This document shows, one piece after another, positions 5,017 through 63,115 of a stretch of DNA of 64,000 nt. Positions within the stretch are counted from its first letter, which is position 1. The number at the start of each line of letters is the position of its first letter. The notes beneath the pieces are model-generated. The model saw nothing but the letters and a program-made list of their open reading frames with translations. It was not told the origin of the DNA and made no database searches. The stretch spans positions 4,766 through 68,765 of the forward strand of contig DAOWGI010000005.1 of assembly GCA_030637655.1 (NCBI GenBank), written 5' to 3'. The position numbers and the translations under genes are program-made. This DNA comes from a candidate division FCPU426 bacterium (lineage in GTDB: Bacteria; Oederibacteriota; JAAXVQ01; JAUVAV01).

Positions 5017-5847
5017 ATGAAGCTGCTGATCGCTGTTGTTCTTATCCTGGTACTTGGGAAAATATTCATTGCCCATATGGTGCAAAAAAGTCTGTATTAT
5101 CCCAGCCGGACTATGGCTGAAACACCTGACGCACTGCATATCGACTATGAAAATATCGAAATCACAACCCCGGATGGGACCAAACTGCATGCCTGGTTTG
5201 TCAGGCATCCCCAAGCCAAAACAACGGTTCTTTTTTGTCATGGTAATGCCGGAAATATATCGCACCGCCTATTTCGAATAAAATTTTTTCATAACCTCCA
5301 AGCCAACGTGCTGCTTTGGGATTATCGTGGATATGGAAAAAGTACAGGACGGCCTTCGGAAAAAGGTCTGTATCAGGATGTCCTGGCAGTCTGCGATTAT
5401 CTGATCACTGCCAAAAATATTCCAGTTGAGAGTATTATTGCATATGGCAAATCACTGGGCTGTGCCGTAGTGACGGAATTAAGCCGACACCGGGAAATTG
5501 GATACTTAGTTTTGGAAAGCCCGTTTATCTCAGTCACTCAAATCGCCCAAGAAATGATTCCCTGGCTGCCAATGAAATATATTATTCGGCAAAAATATGA
5601 TAATGTTGGTAAATTAGCAGTCAGTGCGGTGCCGAAATTAATTTTGCATGGACGCTATGATGAGATTATTGATTATCACCATGCAGAAATGTTGCATCAA
5701 CAGGCTGCCGGCCCCAAAACATTTTTATCGTTTGACGGTGGACACAATGATATTATTTATGTAACGTCGCAGGAGTATAAGAAGGTATTTCAAAAAATCA
5801 TGAAAAACTGTCAAACGGCAGTGGCGAAAACTAAAAAAAAGAACTGA
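5017..5847 (+). CDS. alpha/beta-fold hydrolase
   Basis: GxSxG nucleophile elbow (GKSLGCAV), HGNAGN oxyanion region; start chosen at ATG 5017 (RBS AAAGGGAAG) rather than ORF-track 4942. Confidence 0.6.
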   Translation: MKLLIAVVLILVLGKIFIAHMVQKSLYYPSRTMAETPDALHIDYENIEITTPDGTKLHAWFVRHPQAKTTVLFCHGNAGNISHRLFRIKFFHNLQANVLLWDYRGYGKSTGRPSEKGLYQDVLAVCDYLITAKNIPVESIIAYGKSLGCAVVTELSRHREIGYLVLESPFISVTQIAQEMIPWLPMKYIIRQKYDNVGKLAVSAVPKLILHGRYDEIIDYHHAEMLHQQAAGPKTFLSFDGGHNDIIYVTSQEYKKVFQKIMKNCQTAVAKTKKKN

Positions 5848-5870
5848 ATACACTACACATAGGAGGAACC

Positions 5871-6242
5871 ATGGCCAGAGAAATCACAGATGCGCAAAAT
5901 TATCAGGATCGTTTGTTGAAATTAATTCCCAGTGAGATTATTGGCGCCTATTTGTTCTTGCAGGGAGTTATACCGAAAGAACACGGCAAATGGGGAACTT
6001 CAATAGTGGTTTTCATTCTATGCATTATGACTCCCCTTTATTTAAAGCGGATCCAAAACGTGAATAAGAAAAACCAATTGGTGGTAACGACCATATCGTT
6101 TTTAGTTTGGGTGTATTCATTTGGGGGGCCGTTTACCTTTTGGGGTATCTATCAACCCTGGTTGGGATCCATTATTCTGGTTTTATGGACCATGACAGTT
6201 CCCTTGGTGTTTGCACCGACTCTCAAAGCCAGGCCGGCGTAA
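5871..6242 (+). CDS. small integral membrane protein, unknown function
   Basis: 123 aa; 3-4 predicted TM helices; strong RBS GGAGGAAC. Confidence 0.35.
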   Translation: MAREITDAQNYQDRLLKLIPSEIIGAYLFLQGVIPKEHGKWGTSIVVFILCIMTPLYLKRIQNVNKKNQLVVTTISFLVWVYSFGGPFTFWGIYQPWLGSIILVLWTMTVPLVFAPTLKARPA

Positions 6243-6328
6243 AGCGCGGAATAGTATGCTGTATCTATTACTGGACCATAAGGCCTCGATGTGGTACACT
6301 TTATGTGGTTAAAAAACAAGAGCAGGTG

Positions 6329-6739
6329 ATGCTGATGACTGCGAAATCCTTTGCTGAAAATCGCTGCTACCCACGACTTCTTATCAATTTGACCCTCAAC
6401 TACAAATATCTTGAATATGGCAATCTTTATCATGCTTTAGAAAGCAGGACGCTGAATTTAAGTGCCTGTGGATTGGCCATGTACACGGATCGAATACTAC
6501 CTAAAGATCAGCACATTTTAATGACCTTGTTTTTACCTCGCGAAAATGTGGTTGCCAATCCGGGTGAAAAAACCAAAAAAACAGATGACAACTATCTTTC
6601 AGTTATGTTGCTTTCGAGCGTTGTTTGGTGCCATCAAGACGAAAACGATGAATGTCATGTCGGCTTGAAGATTATGCAAGTGGAACCGGAACACAAAAAG
6701 CGTTTGCAACTTTTTTTGGCTTCACATAAATTGGATTAG
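6329..6739 (+). CDS. PilZ-domain protein (paralog)
   Basis: ENRCYPRLL...NLSACGLAMY PilZ signature; C-terminal VVWCHQDE module shared with the 10423 paralog; start moved to in-frame ATG 6329 because upstream ORF-track extension overlaps 5871..6242. Confidence 0.5.
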   Translation: MLMTAKSFAENRCYPRLLINLTLNYKYLEYGNLYHALESRTLNLSACGLAMYTDRILPKDQHILMTLFLPRENVVANPGEKTKKTDDNYLSVMLLSSVVWCHQDENDECHVGLKIMQVEPEHKKRLQLFLASHKLD

Positions 6740-6860: not shown

Positions 6861-8594
6861 TCACTTCTGTTTTTTTTGGATTTTGGCCCAAGTGTCCCGC
6901 AACGTGGTCGTGCGATTAAAGACCGGATAATCAGGGGTTGAATCCGGATCCACGCAAAAATAACCATGCCGCATAAACTGGAAGCGCGCGCCGGATTCGA
7001 GATTTTTTAAACTTGGTTCTAATTTACAATTGGTTAAAGTAACCAGTGAATCCGGATTTAAATTGGTTTTGAAATCCTTGCCTTCCGGCACAGCGTTGGG
7101 ATCTGCTGTGGCAAATAAATGATCATATAAACGTACTTCCGCAGTCACGGCGTGCGCTATAGATACCCACTGTAAGGTCCCTTTAACCCGGCGCTTATCC
7201 GGCGTGCCGCCGCCCCGTGATTCCGGATCATAGCTGCAATGCAATTCGATTACTTCGCCGGTGGTTTTATCTTTGATTACTTGCCGGCAGGTAATGTAAT
7301 AGGCGTGTTTGAGCCGGACTTCACGTCCGGGTGCCAAACGGAAATAACCTGTGGGCGGGTCTTCCTGAAAGTCGGTTTGCTCTATATACACAGTGCGTGT
7401 AAAGGGGATTTTGCGCGTGCCGGCTGAAGTGTCTTCGGGATTGTTTTCAGCATCAAATTCTTCCACTTGTTCTTCGGGATAATTCTCGATAACCACTTTG
7501 AGCGGATGCAAAACCGCCATGACCCGCTGGGCGCGCAAATTTAAATCTTCGCGCAAATAAAATTCCAAGGTGCCTATCTCAATAACGCTATTGGTTTTAT
7601 TCACGCCAATGTGGTTGCAAAAATTTCGGATGGCTTCCGGAGTATAACCGCGTCTGCGCAATCCGGAAATAGTAGGCATCCGGGGATCGTCCCACCCATT
7701 GATAATATTTTCATTGACCAGTTGGAGTAATTTGCGTTTGCTCAAAACGGTATAGCTGAGTTCCAGGCGGGCGAACTCAATTTGCCGCGGCCGGCAAGCA
7801 ATAGTAATGTTATCCAAGACCCAAACATATAGCGGACGATGATCCTCAAATTCCAAGGTGCATAATGAATGTGTGATATTTTCAATGGCATCAGAAATAC
7901 AATGCGCGAAATCATACAGTGGATAGATGCACCATTTGTCGCCGGTTCGCGGATGAACGGCGTGCTTGATACGATAAAGAGCAGGATCCCGCATATTGAT
8001 GTTGGGATGGGACATATCAATTTTGGCGCGTAATACGCACTCGCCTTCTTTTACCTCACCACAACGCATTTTTTCAAACCAGGCCAAATTTTCTTCCGGG
8101 CTGCGGTCGCGGTACGGGCTGTTTTGGCCGGGTTTCGTGAGGGTGCCCCGGTAGCCCCGGGTGTCTTCAGGGGAAAGGTGACAGACATACGCCAATCCTT
8201 TATTAATGAGCTCGATCGCGTACTGATGGAATTGATCGTAATAATCCGAGGCATGATACAGGTGTTGTCCCCAATCAAAACCCAACCACCGCACATCTTT
8301 TTCGATGGCATCAATGTATTCCTGCTCCTCTTTCTCCGGATTGGTATCATCAAAACGCAAATGACAGACTCCTTGATATTCTTGAGCAACACCAAAGTTG
8401 AGATTGATGGATTTAGCATGTCCGATATGCAGGTATCCATTGGGTTCCGGCGGGAAACGGGTTTCCACCCGTCCGGCATGTTTATTGGAAGCGATATCCT
8501 GCGTGATTATTTTCCGGATAAAATCCAGTGATTGGCTCGGTGTTTCCGAAGTTACTTGCGTAGGTTCCGTCATTTTGAAAAACTCCTTAAGCAT
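6861..8594 (-). CDS. glnS: glutaminyl-tRNA synthetase
   Basis: [17 protein letters not shown] (HIGH), VLSKR (KMSKS variant); 577 aa with GlnRS-type C-terminal anticodon-binding region; close match to GlnRS N-terminal consensus. Confidence 0.9.
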
Positions 8595-14725: not shown

Positions 14726-16702
14726 GTGAATGGATCCATGCCGGAGTATTGCATTTCTTTGTCTGAAAATAAAAAAATCGCGGTAGCGCCGGGCACTACG
14801 CTGGGAGAAGCCTTAAAACAGCTCAATCCGGCTTTATACGGTAAAGCCTTAGCCATAAAAATCGGAGACCGGTTTTTTGATCTGGCGCGGGAAGTTCCGG
14901 TTGGTGAGAGTCGCATCACAGTCCTGGATTTTGCCTCGCCGGAAGGCCGGGAGGTATTTCGTCATTCCACCGCACATTTGATGGCCGCGGCAGTCAAAGA
15001 ATTGTTCCCGGAAACAAAAGTAACGATTGGTCCTTCCATCAAAGACGGTTTTTATTATGACTTTGACCGGGATACCCATTTTACCCCGGAAAGCCTGGAA
15101 ACCATTGAGAAACGCATGAAAGAGATTGCTCAAAAGAAACTGTCATTTATCAGAAAAGTCGTGTCCAGAGAAGAAGCCCGTGAGTTGTTTGAAAAAACGG
15201 GGGAGACCTACAAGCTTGAATTGCTGGATGCGATTGAACCCGGCCAGGATGTCTCGCTCTATTTTTTAGGAAACTTTGTTGATCTCTGCCGCGGTCCGCA
15301 TATCCCGCACTCCGGCCTGTTAAAAGCATTCAAGTTGCTCTCCGTGGCCGGCGCGTATTGGCGCGGCGATGAAAATAACAAGATGCTGCAACGGATTTAT
15401 GGGATTGGTTTTGAAAAAAATTCGGGTTTAGAAGCATATTTGCAGCGTTTGGAAGAAGCCAAACGCAGGGACCACCGCCGCTTGGGAAAAGATTTGGATC
15501 TTTTTTCTTTTCATGAAGATTCCGGAGCAGGACTAGTGTACTGGCATCCCAAAGGTTCGAAGATTCGCATGCTCATGGAGGATTTCTGGCGAGCAGAGCA
15601 TTTACAGAATGGGTACGAAATTCTCTATACACCGCATATCGGAAAAGCTCAATTGTGGGAGACTTCCGGTCATTTAGCGTTTTATAAGGAATCCATGTAT
15701 GCACCCATGGTTGTTGATGAACTTGATTATTATATCAGACCTATGAATTGTCCTTTTCATATAAAAATATATAAAAGTGATGTGCGCTCCTATCGCCAGT
15801 TGCCAATGCGCTGGGCGGAGTTGGGAACTGTATATCGCTATGAAAAATCCGGCGTTTTGCACGGTTTGTTCCGGGTTAGAGGATTCACTCAGGATGATGC
15901 GCATATTTTCTGCACACACCGGCAATTGGCGGGCGAAATTCAGGAAGTATTGCGATTTGTGCTGTACATTCTAAAAACCTTTGGATTCAAAGAGTATGAA
16001 ATATATCTCTCTACCAAGCCGGAGAAAGATACTGTGGGTAGTGATGAGGTATGGGACCAAGCTACTGAAGCGTTGCGCAAAGCGCTTGAAAATTCAGGCT
16101 TGCCATATGCTGTGGATGAGGGTGGGGGAACCTTTTATGGTCCGAAAGTGGACATAAAAATCAAAGATTGTTTGGATCGAATCTGGCAATGTTCAACCAT
16201 TCAGGTGGATTTTAATTTGCCGGAACGGTTTGATATGAAATATGTTGGTGAAGATGGAAAAGAGCATCGGCCCATCATGATTCATCGGGCCTTAATGGGT
16301 TCCTTGGAGCGCTTCTTCGGAATTATGGTCGAGCATTATGCCGGCGCTTTTCCGGTTTGGCTGGCGCCAGTGCAAGCCAGGATTTGCACTATTGCGGATC
16401 GTCATCAGGAATTTGCCCAAGAAATTGTGAAGCAATTGAAGTCACACGGAATACGCGTTGATATTGATATGAAAAGCGATAAAGTCAATGCTAAAATACG
16501 CAATGCGCAATTAGAAAAGATACCGTACATGCTGGTGGTGGGAGACCGGGAAGTGGAACAGCAGGCAGCAGCCTTGCGGATACGCACCGGAGAAAATCGC
16601 GGTGCCATGCCAATTGAAGAAATCGCGAAATTAATCCAGCGAAAAAACGCGGATAAGGCGCTTGACCTGGTAGAGACGCGATTAATCGCGTCTCTAGATT
16701 AA
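14726..16702 (+). CDS. thrS: threonyl-tRNA synthetase
   Basis: TGS, editing, class II catalytic (HRALMGSLERF) and anticodon-binding regions; last 11 codons and TAA stop lie inside a tandem REP. Confidence 0.9.
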   Translation: MNGSMPEYCISLSENKKIAVAPGTTLGEALKQLNPALYGKALAIKIGDRFFDLAREVPVGESRITVLDFASPEGREVFRHSTAHLMAAAVKELFPETKVTIGPSIKDGFYYDFDRDTHFTPESLETIEKRMKEIAQKKLSFIRKVVSREEARELFEKTGETYKLELLDAIEPGQDVSLYFLGNFVDLCRGPHIPHSGLLKAFKLLSVAGAYWRGDENNKMLQRIYGIGFEKNSGLEAYLQRLEEAKRRDHRRLGKDLDLFSFHEDSGAGLVYWHPKGSKIRMLMEDFWRAEHLQNGYEILYTPHIGKAQLWETSGHLAFYKESMYAPMVVDELDYYIRPMNCPFHIKIYKSDVRSYRQLPMRWAELGTVYRYEKSGVLHGLFRVRGFTQDDAHIFCTHRQLAGEIQEVLRFVLYILKTFGFKEYEIYLSTKPEKDTVGSDEVWDQATEALRKALENSGLPYAVDEGGGTFYGPKVDIKIKDCLDRIWQCSTIQVDFNLPERFDMKYVGEDGKEHRPIMIHRALMGSLERFFGIMVEHYAGAFPVWLAPVQARICTIADRHQEFAQEIVKQLKSHGIRVDIDMKSDKVNAKIRNAQLEKIPYMLVVGDREVEQQAAALRIRTGENRGAMPIEEIAKLIQRKNADKALDLVETRLIASLD

Positions 16703-16714
16703 TCGCGTCTCTAC
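16670..16714. repeat. tandem REP-like palindrome (GTAGAGACGCGATTAATCGCGTCTCTA x1.5)
   Basis: gtagagacgcgattaatcgcgtctctagattaatcgcgtctctac; overlaps thrS 3' end. Confidence 0.7.
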
Positions 16715-19856: not shown

Positions 19857-19884
19857 GTAGAGACGCATGATTATGCGTCTCTAC
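19857..19884. repeat. REP-like palindrome gtagagacgcatgattatgcgtctctac
   Basis: perfect 10-bp stems with GTAG/CTAC ends; between two minus-strand genes, abutting the RBS. Confidence 0.65.
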
Positions 19885-38959: not shown

Positions 38960-39152
38960 AAACGGACCTCCTATATACCAGGTTATTCTAATATTCTTTA
39001 TTTTAATTGTCAAATGTCAATATAGCGGTAACCCCGGACTTTAGTCCGGGGTTACCGCATTCCCTCTACCTTTTAGGGAGAGGGATAAAGGGTGAGGGTT
39101 ACCTGAATACTCCGCACTTCAGTGCGGGGATGATTTATTCATTGTTAGTTTT

Positions 39153-49870: not shown

Positions 49871-51655
49871 TTAACCGGCATAATTCCGTTTGAATATTTT
49901 ATCCAGCTCATCCCAGGAAAGGCGAAAAATATAAGGTCTTCCGTGCGGACAGGTCGGCAATCCTTTCAGGGCTCGCATTTGTTTGATGAGTGCCAGCATG
50001 CTTTCCGGTTGCAGGCGTTCTCCGGCTTTCACAGCTGCTTTGCAGGCCATGCTCTGCAAAATTTTTTCTCTAAACTTGTTTTTATCCATCAGCTTACCGG
50101 TCTCAGCCAGCCACTCAATAACCTCATTGACAATGGCAATCAAATCTCCCTGCGGAAATTGATCCGGTTGGGTTTGAATGGTAAAAGTATTGCCGCCCAA
50201 AGGTGATATTTCCAAACCCATCTCAGAAAACAGTTCCCTTGCCTCAGTGAGCAATCCGGTTTGCGAAGGCTTAAGTTCAAACGTTAAAGGCAGCAATAAA
50301 TTTTGCCGGGGCAAGTCCCGTGGCCATTGCAAAAAGGATTCATAAAGAATTCTTTCGTGAACAGCATGTTGATCCACCAGGAAAAAGCCTTGTTCATCTT
50401 GCACGGCAATATAGGTCCGGCCGACCTGACCAATGACACGCAATGCAACTTCCGCGGATGGTTCTTCCCCGATAGGGGCGCGATTAATCGCGCCCCTACC
50501 ATCTATATATGTAGCAATCGATTCTTTCACCCGGTCTTGGGACCAACCCATTGGCAAGGATTGCGGAGAATAAGTAGGGGCGCGATTAATCGCGCCCCTA
50601 CTTGGTTTTTCCTTAGATGTTGAAATATGCAATAAACTCGAGGGTTTACTGCCGGTCAGATCTCCTTGCTGCAGCACATTTTGGATAGTGGTATAAACCA
50701 AATTGTGAATACCATGTTCATCACGCAAACGCACTTCTCTTTTAGCAGGATGCACATTAACATCAACCAGATGATTAGGCATGGTGAAGAACAAATAGCA
50801 GATCGGAAAACGGCCTTCCGGTATTAGTGTCCTATAGGCTTGAATCACAGCATGCGCGATACCACGATGTTCAACCGGGCGTTGATTGATGAAAAAGCGC
50901 ATGCCGAGCCTGGTATTGCGATGATCAGAGGGATTCGCAATTCGTCCTCGAATCCAAATCCCGCCTGCTTCCCTCTCCACTGGCAGCATATTTTGCGGTA
51001 AAGCACTTCCATACAGTGTTGCCAAGCGGTCGGATAATATTTTAGTAGGCGGACAATTAAAAAGTTCACGCCGGTCTACAATCAGTTTAAAACCAACACG
51101 TTTGTGCGCAATAGCGGCCAACTCTACGACTTGTACAATATGGGATTGTTCAGTGGAATGAGTTTTCATAAATTTGCGGCGGGCCGGAGTATTAAAAAAG
51201 AGATCTTCAACAACAATCGTAGTTCCGGCCGCGCAACCGGTTTCGCCTTTTGACGTGATCTTGCCGCCGGAGAGTTTCATGCGAAATCCCACCGATTTTT
51301 TTTCCGGCCGCGTTAAAATTTCCACCTGGGAGACCGCGGCAATGGATGGCAGGGCTTCCCCGCGAAAACCCAAAGTGTCAATATTTTCCAAATCTTCCGC
51401 TTTACTGATTTTACTGGTCGCGTGCCGGGAAAACGCCAATTGGGCATCCTCCACATTCATACCCTGGCCATCGTCAGTCACGCGTATACTTTGGAAACCG
51501 GCACTTTTAATTTCCACTTCAATTCTGGTCGCCTTGGCATCCAGGGCGTTTTCAAGCAACTCTTTAACCACCGCAGCCGGACGTTCCACCACCTCGCCGG
51601 CGGCAATCAGATTGGCAACCTGATCCGATAATATTTTAATATGTGTATTGGTCAT
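49871..51655 (-). CDS. mutL: DNA mismatch repair protein MutL (with two in-frame REP insertions in linker)
   Basis: GHKL ATPase motifs (ELLENALDA, DDGQGM, GFRGEAL) and C-terminal dimerisation domain; linker contains 2x RGAINRAP encoded by REPs. Confidence 0.9.
   Translation of the reverse strand: MTNTHIKILSDQVANLIAAGEVVERPAAVVKELLENALDAKATRIEVEIKSAGFQSIRVTDDGQGMNVEDAQLAFSRHATSKISKAEDLENIDTLGFRGEALPSIAAVSQVEILTRPEKKSVGFRMKLSGGKITSKGETGCAAGTTIVVEDLFFNTPARRKFMKTHSTEQSHIVQVVELAAIAHKRVGFKLIVDRRELFNCPPTKILSDRLATLYGSALPQNMLPVEREAGGIWIRGRIANPSDHRNTRLGMRFFINQRPVEHRGIAHAVIQAYRTLIPEGRFPICYLFFTMPNHLVDVNVHPAKREVRLRDEHGIHNLVYTTIQNVLQQGDLTGSKPSSLLHISTSKEKPSRGAINRAPTYSPQSLPMGWSQDRVKESIATYIDGRGAINRAPIGEEPSAEVALRVIGQVGRTYIAVQDEQGFFLVDQHAVHERILYESFLQWPRDLPRQNLLLPLTFELKPSQTGLLTEARELFSEMGLEISPLGGNTFTIQTQPDQFPQGDLIAIVNEVIEWLAETGKLMDKNKFREKILQSMACKAAVKAGERLQPESMLALIKQMRALKGLPTCPHGRPYIFRLSWDELDKIFKRNYAG
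50470..50498. repeat. REP-like palindrome (ataggggcgcgattaatcgcgcccctac) inside mutL
   Basis: perfect palindrome; in-frame. Confidence 0.7.
50574..50601. repeat. REP-like palindrome (gtaggggcgcgattaatcgcgcccctac) inside mutL
   Basis: perfect palindrome; in-frame. Confidence 0.7.
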
Positions 51656-51672
51656 AATGTCGTGTCCTTATC

Positions 51673-51700
51673 GTAGAGACGCCCAATTTGGGCGTCTCTC
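51673..51700. repeat. REP-like palindrome gtagagacgcccaatttgggcgtctctc
   Basis: same stem family, loop ccaatttgg. Confidence 0.65.
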
Positions 51701-51782
51701 TTGATTTTCATGGTATTTTTATACCTTGTTTTTGGGATTGTGTCAATTTATGGGTGAATTGATAATGATTGATAATGATATT

Positions 51783-51811
51783 GTAGAGACGCCCAATTTG
51801 GGCGTCTCTAC
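51783..51811. repeat. REP-like palindrome gtagagacgcccaatttgggcgtctctac
   Basis: second copy 110 bp downstream. Confidence 0.65.
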
Positions 51812-55160: not shown

Positions 55161-55583
55161 CTAAAATGTTGCACTTCTGCTTACAATTCGCCCTTCATCC
55201 AGTTTGGCGATATGCTTTTCAAATTCAAAATGATCAATGATTTCACGAGCGCGTTTGGAAAAACTCTTAATATAATGGCTGAGATTTTTTGTAATATTGG
55301 CAGGCTCACCCTTTAATTTATCAAATGTGAATTTGCTAATGTTATGGAATGATTGACTAGCAACCCGGTTTAAAACCGGTTCAAGATTCTTTACTTTACT
55401 GCTCTTGATGCTTTGGTATTTGGCCAGCACCTTTTCTTTGGTAGGTTCCAACACACAATCCAAACGCCTTAAAACCGTCATTGGCAGTATAACATCTTTG
55501 TATTTTGGTTCGGTCGGTAGGGACCCACGTAATAAATCCTCTACCTGCCATATAAAACTAACTTTTTCGTTAAAATTGTTCAT
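55161..55583 (-). pseudogene. N-terminal fragment of type I restriction-modification N6-adenine methyltransferase (HsdM N-domain)
   Basis: SFIWQVEDLLRG...YKDVILPMTVLRRLD matches HsdM_N; ORF stops after 140 aa, methylase catalytic domain absent. Confidence 0.55.
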
Positions 55584-55587
55584 TAAG

Positions 55588-55615
55588 GTAGGGAACAGGC
55601 ATGCCTGTTCCCTAC
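55588..55615. repeat. REP-like palindrome gtagggaacaggcatgcctgttccctac
   Basis: perfect palindrome with GTAG/CTAC ends. Confidence 0.6.
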
Positions 55616-55699
55616 GGTCTATTCAAATTTGAGACAGCCAGACGGTCACGGATGATGTCGTTTTATACGCGCCAATTATTTGCGGTATCGGTTTTATCT

Positions 55700-55727
55700 G
55701 TAGGGAACGGTCGCGACCGTTCCCTAC
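55700..55727. repeat. REP-like palindrome gtagggaacggtcgcgaccgttccctac
   Basis: same stem as 55588 copy, different loop. Confidence 0.6.
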
Positions 55728-55837
55728 GAAACAATGATCATCCCCGACAATTCGCACGACACCGCTTATTTTGGTTGCTAGAGATTATAAAAGAGCGGCG
55801 CGGCGCGATTAATCACGCCCCTATAATTAAATATGTT

Positions 55838-62882: not shown

Positions 62883-63115
62883 GTAACAGGTCAGTGAAGT
62901 GCTGTGTTTTGTCAAATAACCCGGAAACATAATCCGGATAAACCGGAACTAAAAAGGTATATTCACCGCAGAGGACGACACATGGATTGTTCTATGTAGA
63001 GACGCGATTAATCGCGTCTCTACAGTTTTTATCCCATCTTTCGGAGGCAAGTCGCGTCCCTGGGAAAAAATAAATTAGCAGACCATATGTCTTTCTCGCT
63101 TCACTGATATGTTAC
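62883..63115. mobile_element. MITE (family B) with TGTAACAGGTCAGTGAAG / CTTCACTGATATGTTACA termini, containing a REP
   Basis: 17-bp TIRs; internal 45 nt shared with 24861 and 31302 copies; REP at 62996..63023. Confidence 0.55.
62996..63023. repeat. REP-like palindrome gtagagacgcgattaatcgcgtctctac
   Basis: identical unit to thrS 3' REP. Confidence 0.7.

Follow-up and report, generated by a model that had tools for sequence, protein, structure and literature searches.

Two palindromes in frame within mutL

The window analysed here, a 64,000-nucleotide (nt) stretch of contig DAOWGI010000005.1 (positions 4,766 to 68,765) from an uncultured bacterium resembling candidate division FCPU426, carries a mutL gene and, inside that gene, two copies of a 28-nt palindrome belonging to a dispersed family of repetitive extragenic palindromes (REPs). 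The features concerned are listed below; the palindromes are not assigned to a strand.

49871..51655, minus strand: mutL, endonuclease type, 594 amino acids (aa), from the open reading frame (ORF) list, Pfam and homolog names
50574..50601, no strand: REP copy A, perfect 28-nt double-foot palindrome GTAGGGGCGCGATTAATCGCGCCCCTAC, encoding RGAINRAP at aa 353-360
50500..50573, minus strand: native MutL linker segment between the REPs, aligning with all orthologs
50472..50499, no strand: REP copy B, ATAGGGGCGCGATTAATCGCGCCCCTAC, encoding RGAINRAP at aa 387-394

In the 594-aa product, Pfam recognises HATPase_c_3 (residues 27-121), DNA_mis_repair (212-328) and MutL_C (408-548), and 8000 homologs bear the name MutL. 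The GHKL ATPase, transducer and C-terminal dimerisation domains are all intact, and the endonuclease-type C-terminal motifs (DQHA..E, ACK and CPHGRP) can be read directly in the translation.

Copy A extends with its flanks to a perfect 32-nt palindrome (50572-50603), and both of its GTAG...CTAC feet are intact. Copy B differs from GTAGGGGCGCGATTAATCGCGCCCCTAC only in its outermost G, which is A (ATAG...CTAC), so that one foot is mutated while the foot on the other strand is intact; its inner 26 nt are perfectly palindromic. The two copies are therefore identical at 27/28 nt, third codon positions included. The first-pass annotation of this DNA had reported two 28-nt palindromes in mutL, each encoding RGAINRAP in frame, 35 codons apart. 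Both palindromes and both octapeptides are indeed present, although copy B occupies 50472-50499 rather than 50470-50498 and has the one outer mismatch, and the copies, which share a single frame, start 102 nt (34 codons) apart. The palindrome pattern occurred in none of 100 dinucleotide-preserving shuffles (chance expectation 0). As single-stranded DNA, the predicted hairpins have free energies of -17.7 kcal/mol (copy A, z -8.8) and -14.6 kcal/mol (copy B, z -6.0), values equalled by no shuffle.

Palindromic DNA of this kind creates mirror-image spurious ORFs on the opposite strand. A 106-aa ORF at 50303-50623 (plus strand), antisense to mutL, also contains RGAINRAP twice because the palindromes read RGAINRAP on both strands; it is a mirror-image artefact and is not to be annotated as a gene.

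The palindromes lie in the MutL interdomain linker and are missing from orthologs

An AlphaFold2 model of MutL, built on 24 homologs (mean predicted local distance difference test score, pLDDT, 78), is confident in both folded halves and falls below 50 at residues 335-373 and 386-402. Both octapeptides lie between DNA_mis_repair and MutL_C and within these low-scoring segments, and hence in a part of the linker that is presumably flexible; the Pfam boundaries and the model agree with the disordered interdomain position proposed in the first-pass annotation. Between the copies, the native segment encodes a conserved W-S-x-x-R-V-x-E-S-x-A-x-Y motif, modelled as a short helix at aa 373-385.

The nearest MutL proteins belong to uncultured bacteria, of which some carry the label candidate division FCPU426. 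RGAINRAP was found in none of 22 aligned MutL orthologs (47-80% identity) and, among 119 listed homologs, only in P0001, an identical partial copy of this MutL from another sample; alignment thus upholds the suggestion that the peptide is lineage-specific. RGAINRAP might in principle be a functional MutL motif, for example a duplicated partner-binding site, maintained by selection on the protein and with the palindromic DNA incidental to it. Its presence twice in the same frame, on either side of a conserved linker helix, is in line with such a role. We nevertheless consider it extremely unlikely, given the absence of the peptide from all other MutL homologs examined (bar P0001), the DNA-level identity of the copies down to third codon positions, the occurrence of the same DNA between genes in the window and in unrelated genes of other phyla, and the pLDDT of <50 around both copies.

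When L117 (79% aa identity) and L118 (67%), the two closest orthologous genes, were compared with mutL in a codon-threaded alignment, the 26-residue stretch between the copies proved to be native, conserved MutL. Relative to these genes, copy A represents a net gain of 18 nt, while copy B replaces ~46 nt of unrelated ortholog linker for a net loss of 18 nt; because these changes offset each other, the length of MutL is unchanged at 594 aa. The ORF remains open, as had been claimed, but neither palindrome is a simple addition of 28 nt. The possibility that the whole interval 50472-50601 is a single 130-nt insert was rejected, as its middle aligns with every ortholog. Nor is the pair a CRISPR array: there are two copies only, and the 74 nt that separate them are native mutL coding sequence and conserved.

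It had also been suggested that population variants of mutL lacking the REPs be sought. None was found; a single contig, L119, proved nearly identical. It comes from a different ENA sample and matches at 100% over 3137 nt, both REP copies included. A degenerate DNA pattern representing the conserved segment between the REPs had no match in metagenome contigs, and a MutL protein scan of metagenome contigs yielded no relative closer than 59%.

A further possibility is that the pair has been co-opted, either as an mRNA structure tuning mutL expression or as a recombination substrate reversibly rearranging the linker. The copies are predicted to pair with each other as RNA (-78 kcal/mol, z -8.1), loss of the intervening segment would remove exactly 34 codons in frame, and inversion of that segment also leaves the ORF open. 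Against this, no variant allele was seen and the only other sample is identical; a 25-codon open antisense frame is expected by chance in ~30% of cases (our own estimate); translation would unwind an RNA structure; and the region bears no other sign of regulation. Co-option is therefore judged very improbable.

A family of double-foot palindromes in the window

The mutL palindromes belong to a family with at least 14 members in the window: perfect palindromes of 26-29 nt that start GTAG(A/G)G and end C(C/T)CTAC. Members share their outer arms, while the centres vary and are always self-complementary. Besides the mutL pair, of the GTAGGGGCGCG... variant, at least 12 further GTAG...CTAC hairpins were detected, nearly all of them intergenic, the exception being at the 3′ end of thrS. 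With a GTAG foot, a stable hairpin, a dispersed and mostly intergenic family, and an association of that family, in other genomes, with REP-associated tyrosine transposases (RAYTs, described below), the palindromes were rightly called REPs in the first-pass annotation. Family members outside mutL, again without strand, are the following.

51783..51811, no strand: double-foot REP variant GTAGAGACGCCCAATTTGGGCGTCTCTAC, in the spacer upstream of mutL
51675..51699, no strand: second copy of the GTAGAGACGCCCAATTTGGGCGTCTCTAC variant (tagAGAGACGCCCAATTTGGGCGTCTCTctt), with neither foot complete, 20 nt ahead of the start codon of mutL
16670..16714, no strand: canonical REP GTAGAGACGCGATTAATCGCGTCTCTA with a 17-18-nt partial tandem copy, at the 3′ end of thrS (14726-16702)
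62996..63023, no strand: canonical cross-phylum REP GTAGAGACGCGATTAATCGCGTCTCTAC, intergenic
55588..55823, no strand: intergenic cluster of three, GTAGGGAACAGGCATGCCTGTTCCCTAC (55588), GTAGGGAACGGTCGCGACCGTTCCCTAC (55700) and a degenerate mutL-type copy, GGCGCGATTAATCACGCCCCTA (55802)
19857..19884, no strand: double-foot REP variant GTAGAGACGCATGATTATGCGTCTCTAC, intergenic
10969, 12589 and 17936: looser family relatives

The canonical sequence GTAGAGACGCGATTAATCGCGTCTCTAC is present at both 62996 and 16670, and the members at 55588 and 55700 are of a GTAGGGAAC...GTTCCCTAC type. ORF 14726-16702 encodes threonyl-tRNA synthetase (Pfam) and ends ...LDL-VETRLIASLD-stop, the REP cluster at 16670..16714 providing its last ten codons (VETRLIASLD) and the TAA stop. 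The next gene, argJ (16727), starts 13 nt past the end of this cluster.

Neighbouring REPs in the window are spaced at 102 nt (50472/50574), 108 nt (51675/51783), and 112 and 102 nt (55588/55700/55802), despite unrelated intervening sequences; pairs in other genomes do not show such spacing. A 140-aa ORF at 55161-55583 (minus strand), which stops four bases before the three-REP cluster at 55588-55823, matches only the N-terminal domain of HsdM, the type I restriction-modification methylase, and may be a truncated or split hsdM gene. Elsewhere, a GC-rich, perfect 16-bp hairpin between convergent ORFs (39025-39058, GCGGTAACCCCGGACT tt AGTCCGGGGTTACCGC) has no GTAG feet; it is probably not a REP but a conventional terminator.

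The palindrome is shared across phyla and recurs in frame in unrelated genes

Rather than being confined to this lineage, the element is a double-foot REP found across phyla. When one genome per species was scanned with the 26-mer TAGRGRCGCGATTAATCGCGYCYCTA, at least 116 loci matched, and the matches listed come from Nostocales and other Cyanobacteria, many Bacteroidota, several Patescibacteria, methanotrophic Gammaproteobacteria, Myxococcota, Spirochaetia and Abditibacteria. The 26-mer was also found in 15 IMG/VR viral contigs, and a 30-mer matched just two PLSDB plasmid records. Finished genomes containing the element include those of Calothrix PCC 7716 and Nostoc linckia NIES-25.

Across the 141 copies listed, the ends are sharp, with G at position -1 in 95% and C at +1 in 96%, and the flanks are otherwise unrelated. 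There is no target-site duplication: flanking direct repeats of 2-4 nt occur at chance level at the element boundary. About 17% of the listed copies are centred in a longer local palindrome, and partial and nested copies occur. Two other kinds of element were considered and set aside. A miniature inverted-repeat transposable element would span 50-500 bp between terminal inverted repeats, whereas the unit here is 28 nt and has no flanking target-site duplications; a collapsed transposon, left as the footprint of abutted terminal inverted repeats, was also rejected.

Of the genomic copies among the matches listed, 23/122 (~19%) lie in frame within long ORFs. Two of the element's three frames are stop-free, encoding R-G/D-A-I-N-R-A/V-P/S or V-G/E-A/T-R-L-I-A-P/S-L, and in-frame copies read RDAINRVS or VETRLIASL, the products of these two frames. 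Host ORFs confirmed by Pfam encode MoeA, RecG, TsaD, an RNase H-like protein, a CysJ-like reductase, CobN, DAGAT, UvrC, an S8 peptidase, a NifX-like protein, alpha-2-macroglobulin and a GH20 hexosaminidase, and a P-type ATPase ORF contains four copies of the palindrome or its remnants. The mutL case is one instance of a general behaviour of the element.

Recurrence across unrelated assemblies, together with perfect palindromy and the presence of restriction sites (an outward-facing CGTCTC in the canonical variant and a central ATTAAT), is also what would be expected of hairpin or linker adapters built into contigs during library preparation or assembly. The chance of such an artefact is negligible. 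The identity of L119, which includes both copies, rules out a one-off assembly error; both mutL copies leave the frame open; degenerate and variant copies exist; the element is found in the finished Calothrix and Nostoc genomes; and in Nostoc moeA a copy has accumulated point mutations and undergone partial duplication among dozens of strains.

The exact 28-mer GTAGAGACGCGATTAATCGCGTCTCTAC is common to Cyanobacteria, Bacteroidota, several Patescibacteria, methanotrophs, Myxococcota and phage-like contigs. Identity over such distances is out of the ordinary for REPs, which normally differ even among related species; it would be explained if the master copy resides in a RAYT gene and is transferred together with that gene. 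In related viral contigs, a single REP (L125, 1588-1615) corresponds to three tandem 20-nt hairpin cores, AGACGCGATTAATCGCGTCT (L122, ~990-1075), which have TCTTT separators and share one pair of GTAG/CTAC feet. Apart from the Nostoc moeA loci, this was the only related pair among the loci compared, and it was rejected as a filled and empty site, since the tandem triple of cores is no empty site.

REP variants accompany RAYT variants

When all ORFs of palindrome-bearing loci were clustered without supervision, one recurrent family emerged besides generic kinase and ABC families: a RAYT-like protein of ~200 aa, at seven Bacteroidota loci. Its motifs are PNH[IV]H (the HUH motif), FAWQ and YI(E/I)NN(P/V), and several members are named 'REP element-mobilizing transposase RayT' by JGI. 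A hidden Markov model (HMM) of the family detected two further cases: L025, from a Moraniibacteriota genome, has at its contig end the N-terminus of a homolog, which begins just past the palindrome, and in L117, the closest relative, a C-terminal RAYT pseudogene remnant lies directly upstream of mutL, headed by the GTAGAGACGCCCAATTTGGGCGTCTCTAC variant that is also found upstream of mutL in the window. In other genomes, a RAYT-like gene is flanked by, or contains, the same REP at seven Bacteroidota loci and one locus of the candidate phyla radiation.

The palindrome also occurs in frame inside the RAYT-like genes themselves, in the loop after the HUH motif. RDAINRVST or VETRLIASL (≤3 mismatches) was present in 111/120 best homologs, and other double-foot peptides in eight more. 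This sample of 120 was biased by the query; in a control search that used no word index and was seeded with a member lacking the peptide, 45/150 were within two mismatches, with many other variants besides. The RAYT-like protein P0310 is encoded on L187 by a gene that contains two exact copies of the mutL 28-mer, both reading RGAINRAP. Moreover, the REP variant tracks the RAYT variant: RGAINRAP in L187, VETPNLGVS in P0297 and RDGVHTVST in L013.

In L013 (~5700-6350), a Bacteroidales RAYT gene has the variant GTAGAGACGGTGTGCACACCGTCTCTAC (RDGVHTVST) in both permissive loops, and the canonical REP variant lies immediately beyond the gene. L032 and L187 have both of these loops filled as well, which indicates that the loops are recurrent or ancestral insertion sites.

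In L117, the remnant (...NFTWQYRFHEHIIRDE...YIANNP..., 7277-7605) lies between two double-foot REPs. In the corresponding part of the window (51656-51811), the remnant is gone and the two REPs remain. Common to both is a promoter-like stretch, TTGACA-N17-TATAAA ('aaattgacacaatccc.aaaaca.ggtataaaaat').

Origin of the mutL palindromes

Taken together, these data make it very probable that the mutL palindromes are copies of a double-foot GTAG REP, cognate to a RAYT (TnpAREP), an HUH-tyrosine transposase, of subclass 2.4, which spread by copying and settled in a permissive linker. A double-foot REP is a hairpin of ~28 nt that opens with the guide tetranucleotide GTAG and closes with its complement, CTAC, making both strands alike. 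By analogy with the IS200/IS605 and TnpAREP literature, the RAYT would recognise the hairpin and its GTAG guide on single-stranded DNA, and would cut and rejoin there. Copies would disperse through the genome and most survivors would be intergenic, selection removing coding insertions save those in frame, at permissive sites and with harmless residues; the disordered MutL linker may be such a site. We infer, rather than observe, that a RAYT moved the repeats of mutL, and the same is true of the time of their arrival and of the continued working of MutL.

Presence and absence at orthologous sites speak for mobility in two genes: mutL, whose orthologs are without both copies, and Nostoc moeA, which exists in both empty and filled forms. 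One filled and empty pair could be read, in moeA, where the surrounding DNA is ~88-90% identical and the filled allele exceeds the empty one by exactly 24 nt (empty CCA-ACTCA-AAT, filled CCC-A[GTAG...CTAC]A-AAC). This pair, a single data point, is compatible with a 24-nt mobile unit that joins a pre-existing GTAG/CTAC-like tetranucleotide, in which case insertions would be frame-neutral by construction; the mutL sites, at +18 and -18 nt, do not follow the 24-nt pattern.

The moeA site lies in a hypervariable loop (L188-L190, L009; P0390-P0509) that is either empty, with 25 aa between anchors, or REP-filled (+8 aa). Other Nostoc alleles show an 18-nt internal duplication (RDAINPTDAINRVST), decayed copies, or short repeats piled into the loop (PTPHSPL, SATLTAS).

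Several observations weigh against RAYT-mediated copying into mutL. Neither mutL site is a clean insertion, and a 28-nt unit alone cannot keep the frame, so that the model calls for additional events. The searches yielded no repeat-free allele of this mutL, and the case for its mobility here is built on comparison of species ≤79% identical. No RAYT gene was detected in the window by tblastn or by the custom HMM on six-frame translations, and the RAYT relic beside mutL in L117 has a different REP variant from that within mutL. Finally, the RAYT-like proteins score below the cut-offs of established models: 55 bits against a cut-off of 80 for NCBIfam NF047646 (REP-associated tyrosine transposase, REP_Tyr_transpos), albeit with an E value of 8e-15, and 18-21 bits against 23 for Pfam Y1_Tnp. 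Here the in-frame REP peptides split the match of these proteins to the family model.

Some of the same observations would suit spread without a RAYT, by hairpin-driven template switching or by capture of filler DNA at breaks, RAYT genes then being merely hot targets. Both mutL sites resemble replacement rather than insertion, the window has no RAYT, partial tandem copies of 17-25 nt occur, and ~17% of copies are centred in longer local palindromes. However, a constant 28-mer with sharp ends across phyla needs a sequence-specific agent, the GTAG foot is a known cleavage guide of TnpAREP (PMC6006769), and REP variants track RAYT variants. Spread of this kind is therefore considered unlikely, and dispersal by a cognate RAYT remains the preferred explanation.

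Relation to known palindromic elements

Quentin, Siguier, Chandler and Fichant (2018; PMC6006769) define TnpAREP subclass 2.4, equivalent to Bertels group 4, by the motifs NH[IFV]H, WQ and YIxNNP, and describe for it double-foot REPs with 5′ GT[AG]G and 3′ C[TC]AC. They also report in-frame REP insertion in tnpAREP and remark that a REP inserted into another gene may do no harm where it falls in a flexible linker or loop. The present element resembles those REPs in its foot tetranucleotides, its long perfect hairpin and its occurrence in Cyanobacteria, Bacteroidetes and scattered phyla, and the RAYT-like family carries the corresponding NH[IV]H, WQ and YIxNN motifs. It differs in its host, an uncultured FCPU426-like bacterium from a lineage outside the survey, in its target, mutL, and in the lack of a tnpAREP gene within the window; the sharing of an exact 28-mer across phyla, Patescibacteria and phage contigs included, is apparently not stressed in that paper.

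The outcome is less uncommon than the first-pass annotation had it. Di Nocera, De Gregorio and Rocco (2013; PMC3733652) catalogued GTAG REPs wholly within ORFs, where they add 10-30 residues, some genes having two insertions; the targets include many replication and repair genes (uvrA/B/D, recBCD, polA, dnaE2, ligase) and also tRNA synthetases. The termini often supply stop codons, a situation that the thrS stop in the window parallels. Their REPs have an unpaired GTAG at one end only, whereas the mutL element is symmetric. In the main text of that paper and the supplements examined, mutL was not found among the examples of intragenic REPs, and a literature search with the palindrome as a sequence string turned up no relevant paper.

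The Rickettsia palindromic elements (RPEs; Ogata et al. 2000, as cited in PMC3184786 and PMC3733652) are selfish palindromic repeats in frame within housekeeping genes, at surface-exposed permissive positions, and the mutL element behaves similarly in being in frame and at permissive sites. It is not an RPE: RPE-1 is ~100-150 bp long, confined to Rickettsia and without a known transposase, whereas the present element is 28 nt long, RAYT-linked and hosted by unrelated phyla.

Small dispersed repeats (SDRs) of Nostoc punctiforme, an observation credited to Elhai and colleagues in 2008, are reportedly mobile, hairpin-forming repeats of 21-27 nt that occur in heterocystous cyanobacteria and are nested in one another. 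The present element likewise shows nesting, partial copies and many Nostoc matches; equivalence with the SDRs is a lead only.

GTAG REPs recur in repair genes: in those for MutL, RecG and UvrC here, and in uvr and rec genes in the catalogue of Di Nocera et al. (PMC3733652). One could imagine that this recurrence is adaptive rather than mere tolerance, and that the mutL linker is a rearrangement cassette acting as a reversible mutator switch. Were that so, RAYT-mediated or homologous exchange would delete the 34 codons in frame or, by inversion, keep the ORF open, giving MutL variants with the conserved linker helix missing or scrambled. We regard this proposal as highly improbable.

The first-pass reading of the locus is thus upheld in its essentials, with the refinements given above. 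The phenomenon has already been described, and in concept the case adds little to the 2013 and 2018 papers; the novel parts are the lineage and the target gene, mutL. The present case adds one more repair gene to those decorated by REPs, which are apparently in excess. For annotators and structure predictors, RGAINRAP, RDAINRVS and VETRLIASL can serve as markers of REP-derived sequence. The locus brings an uncultured candidate phylum, and mutL, into the known range of double-foot REPs, and is a clean example, open to checking, of a selfish DNA hairpin that has become part of a core repair protein and has not broken it.

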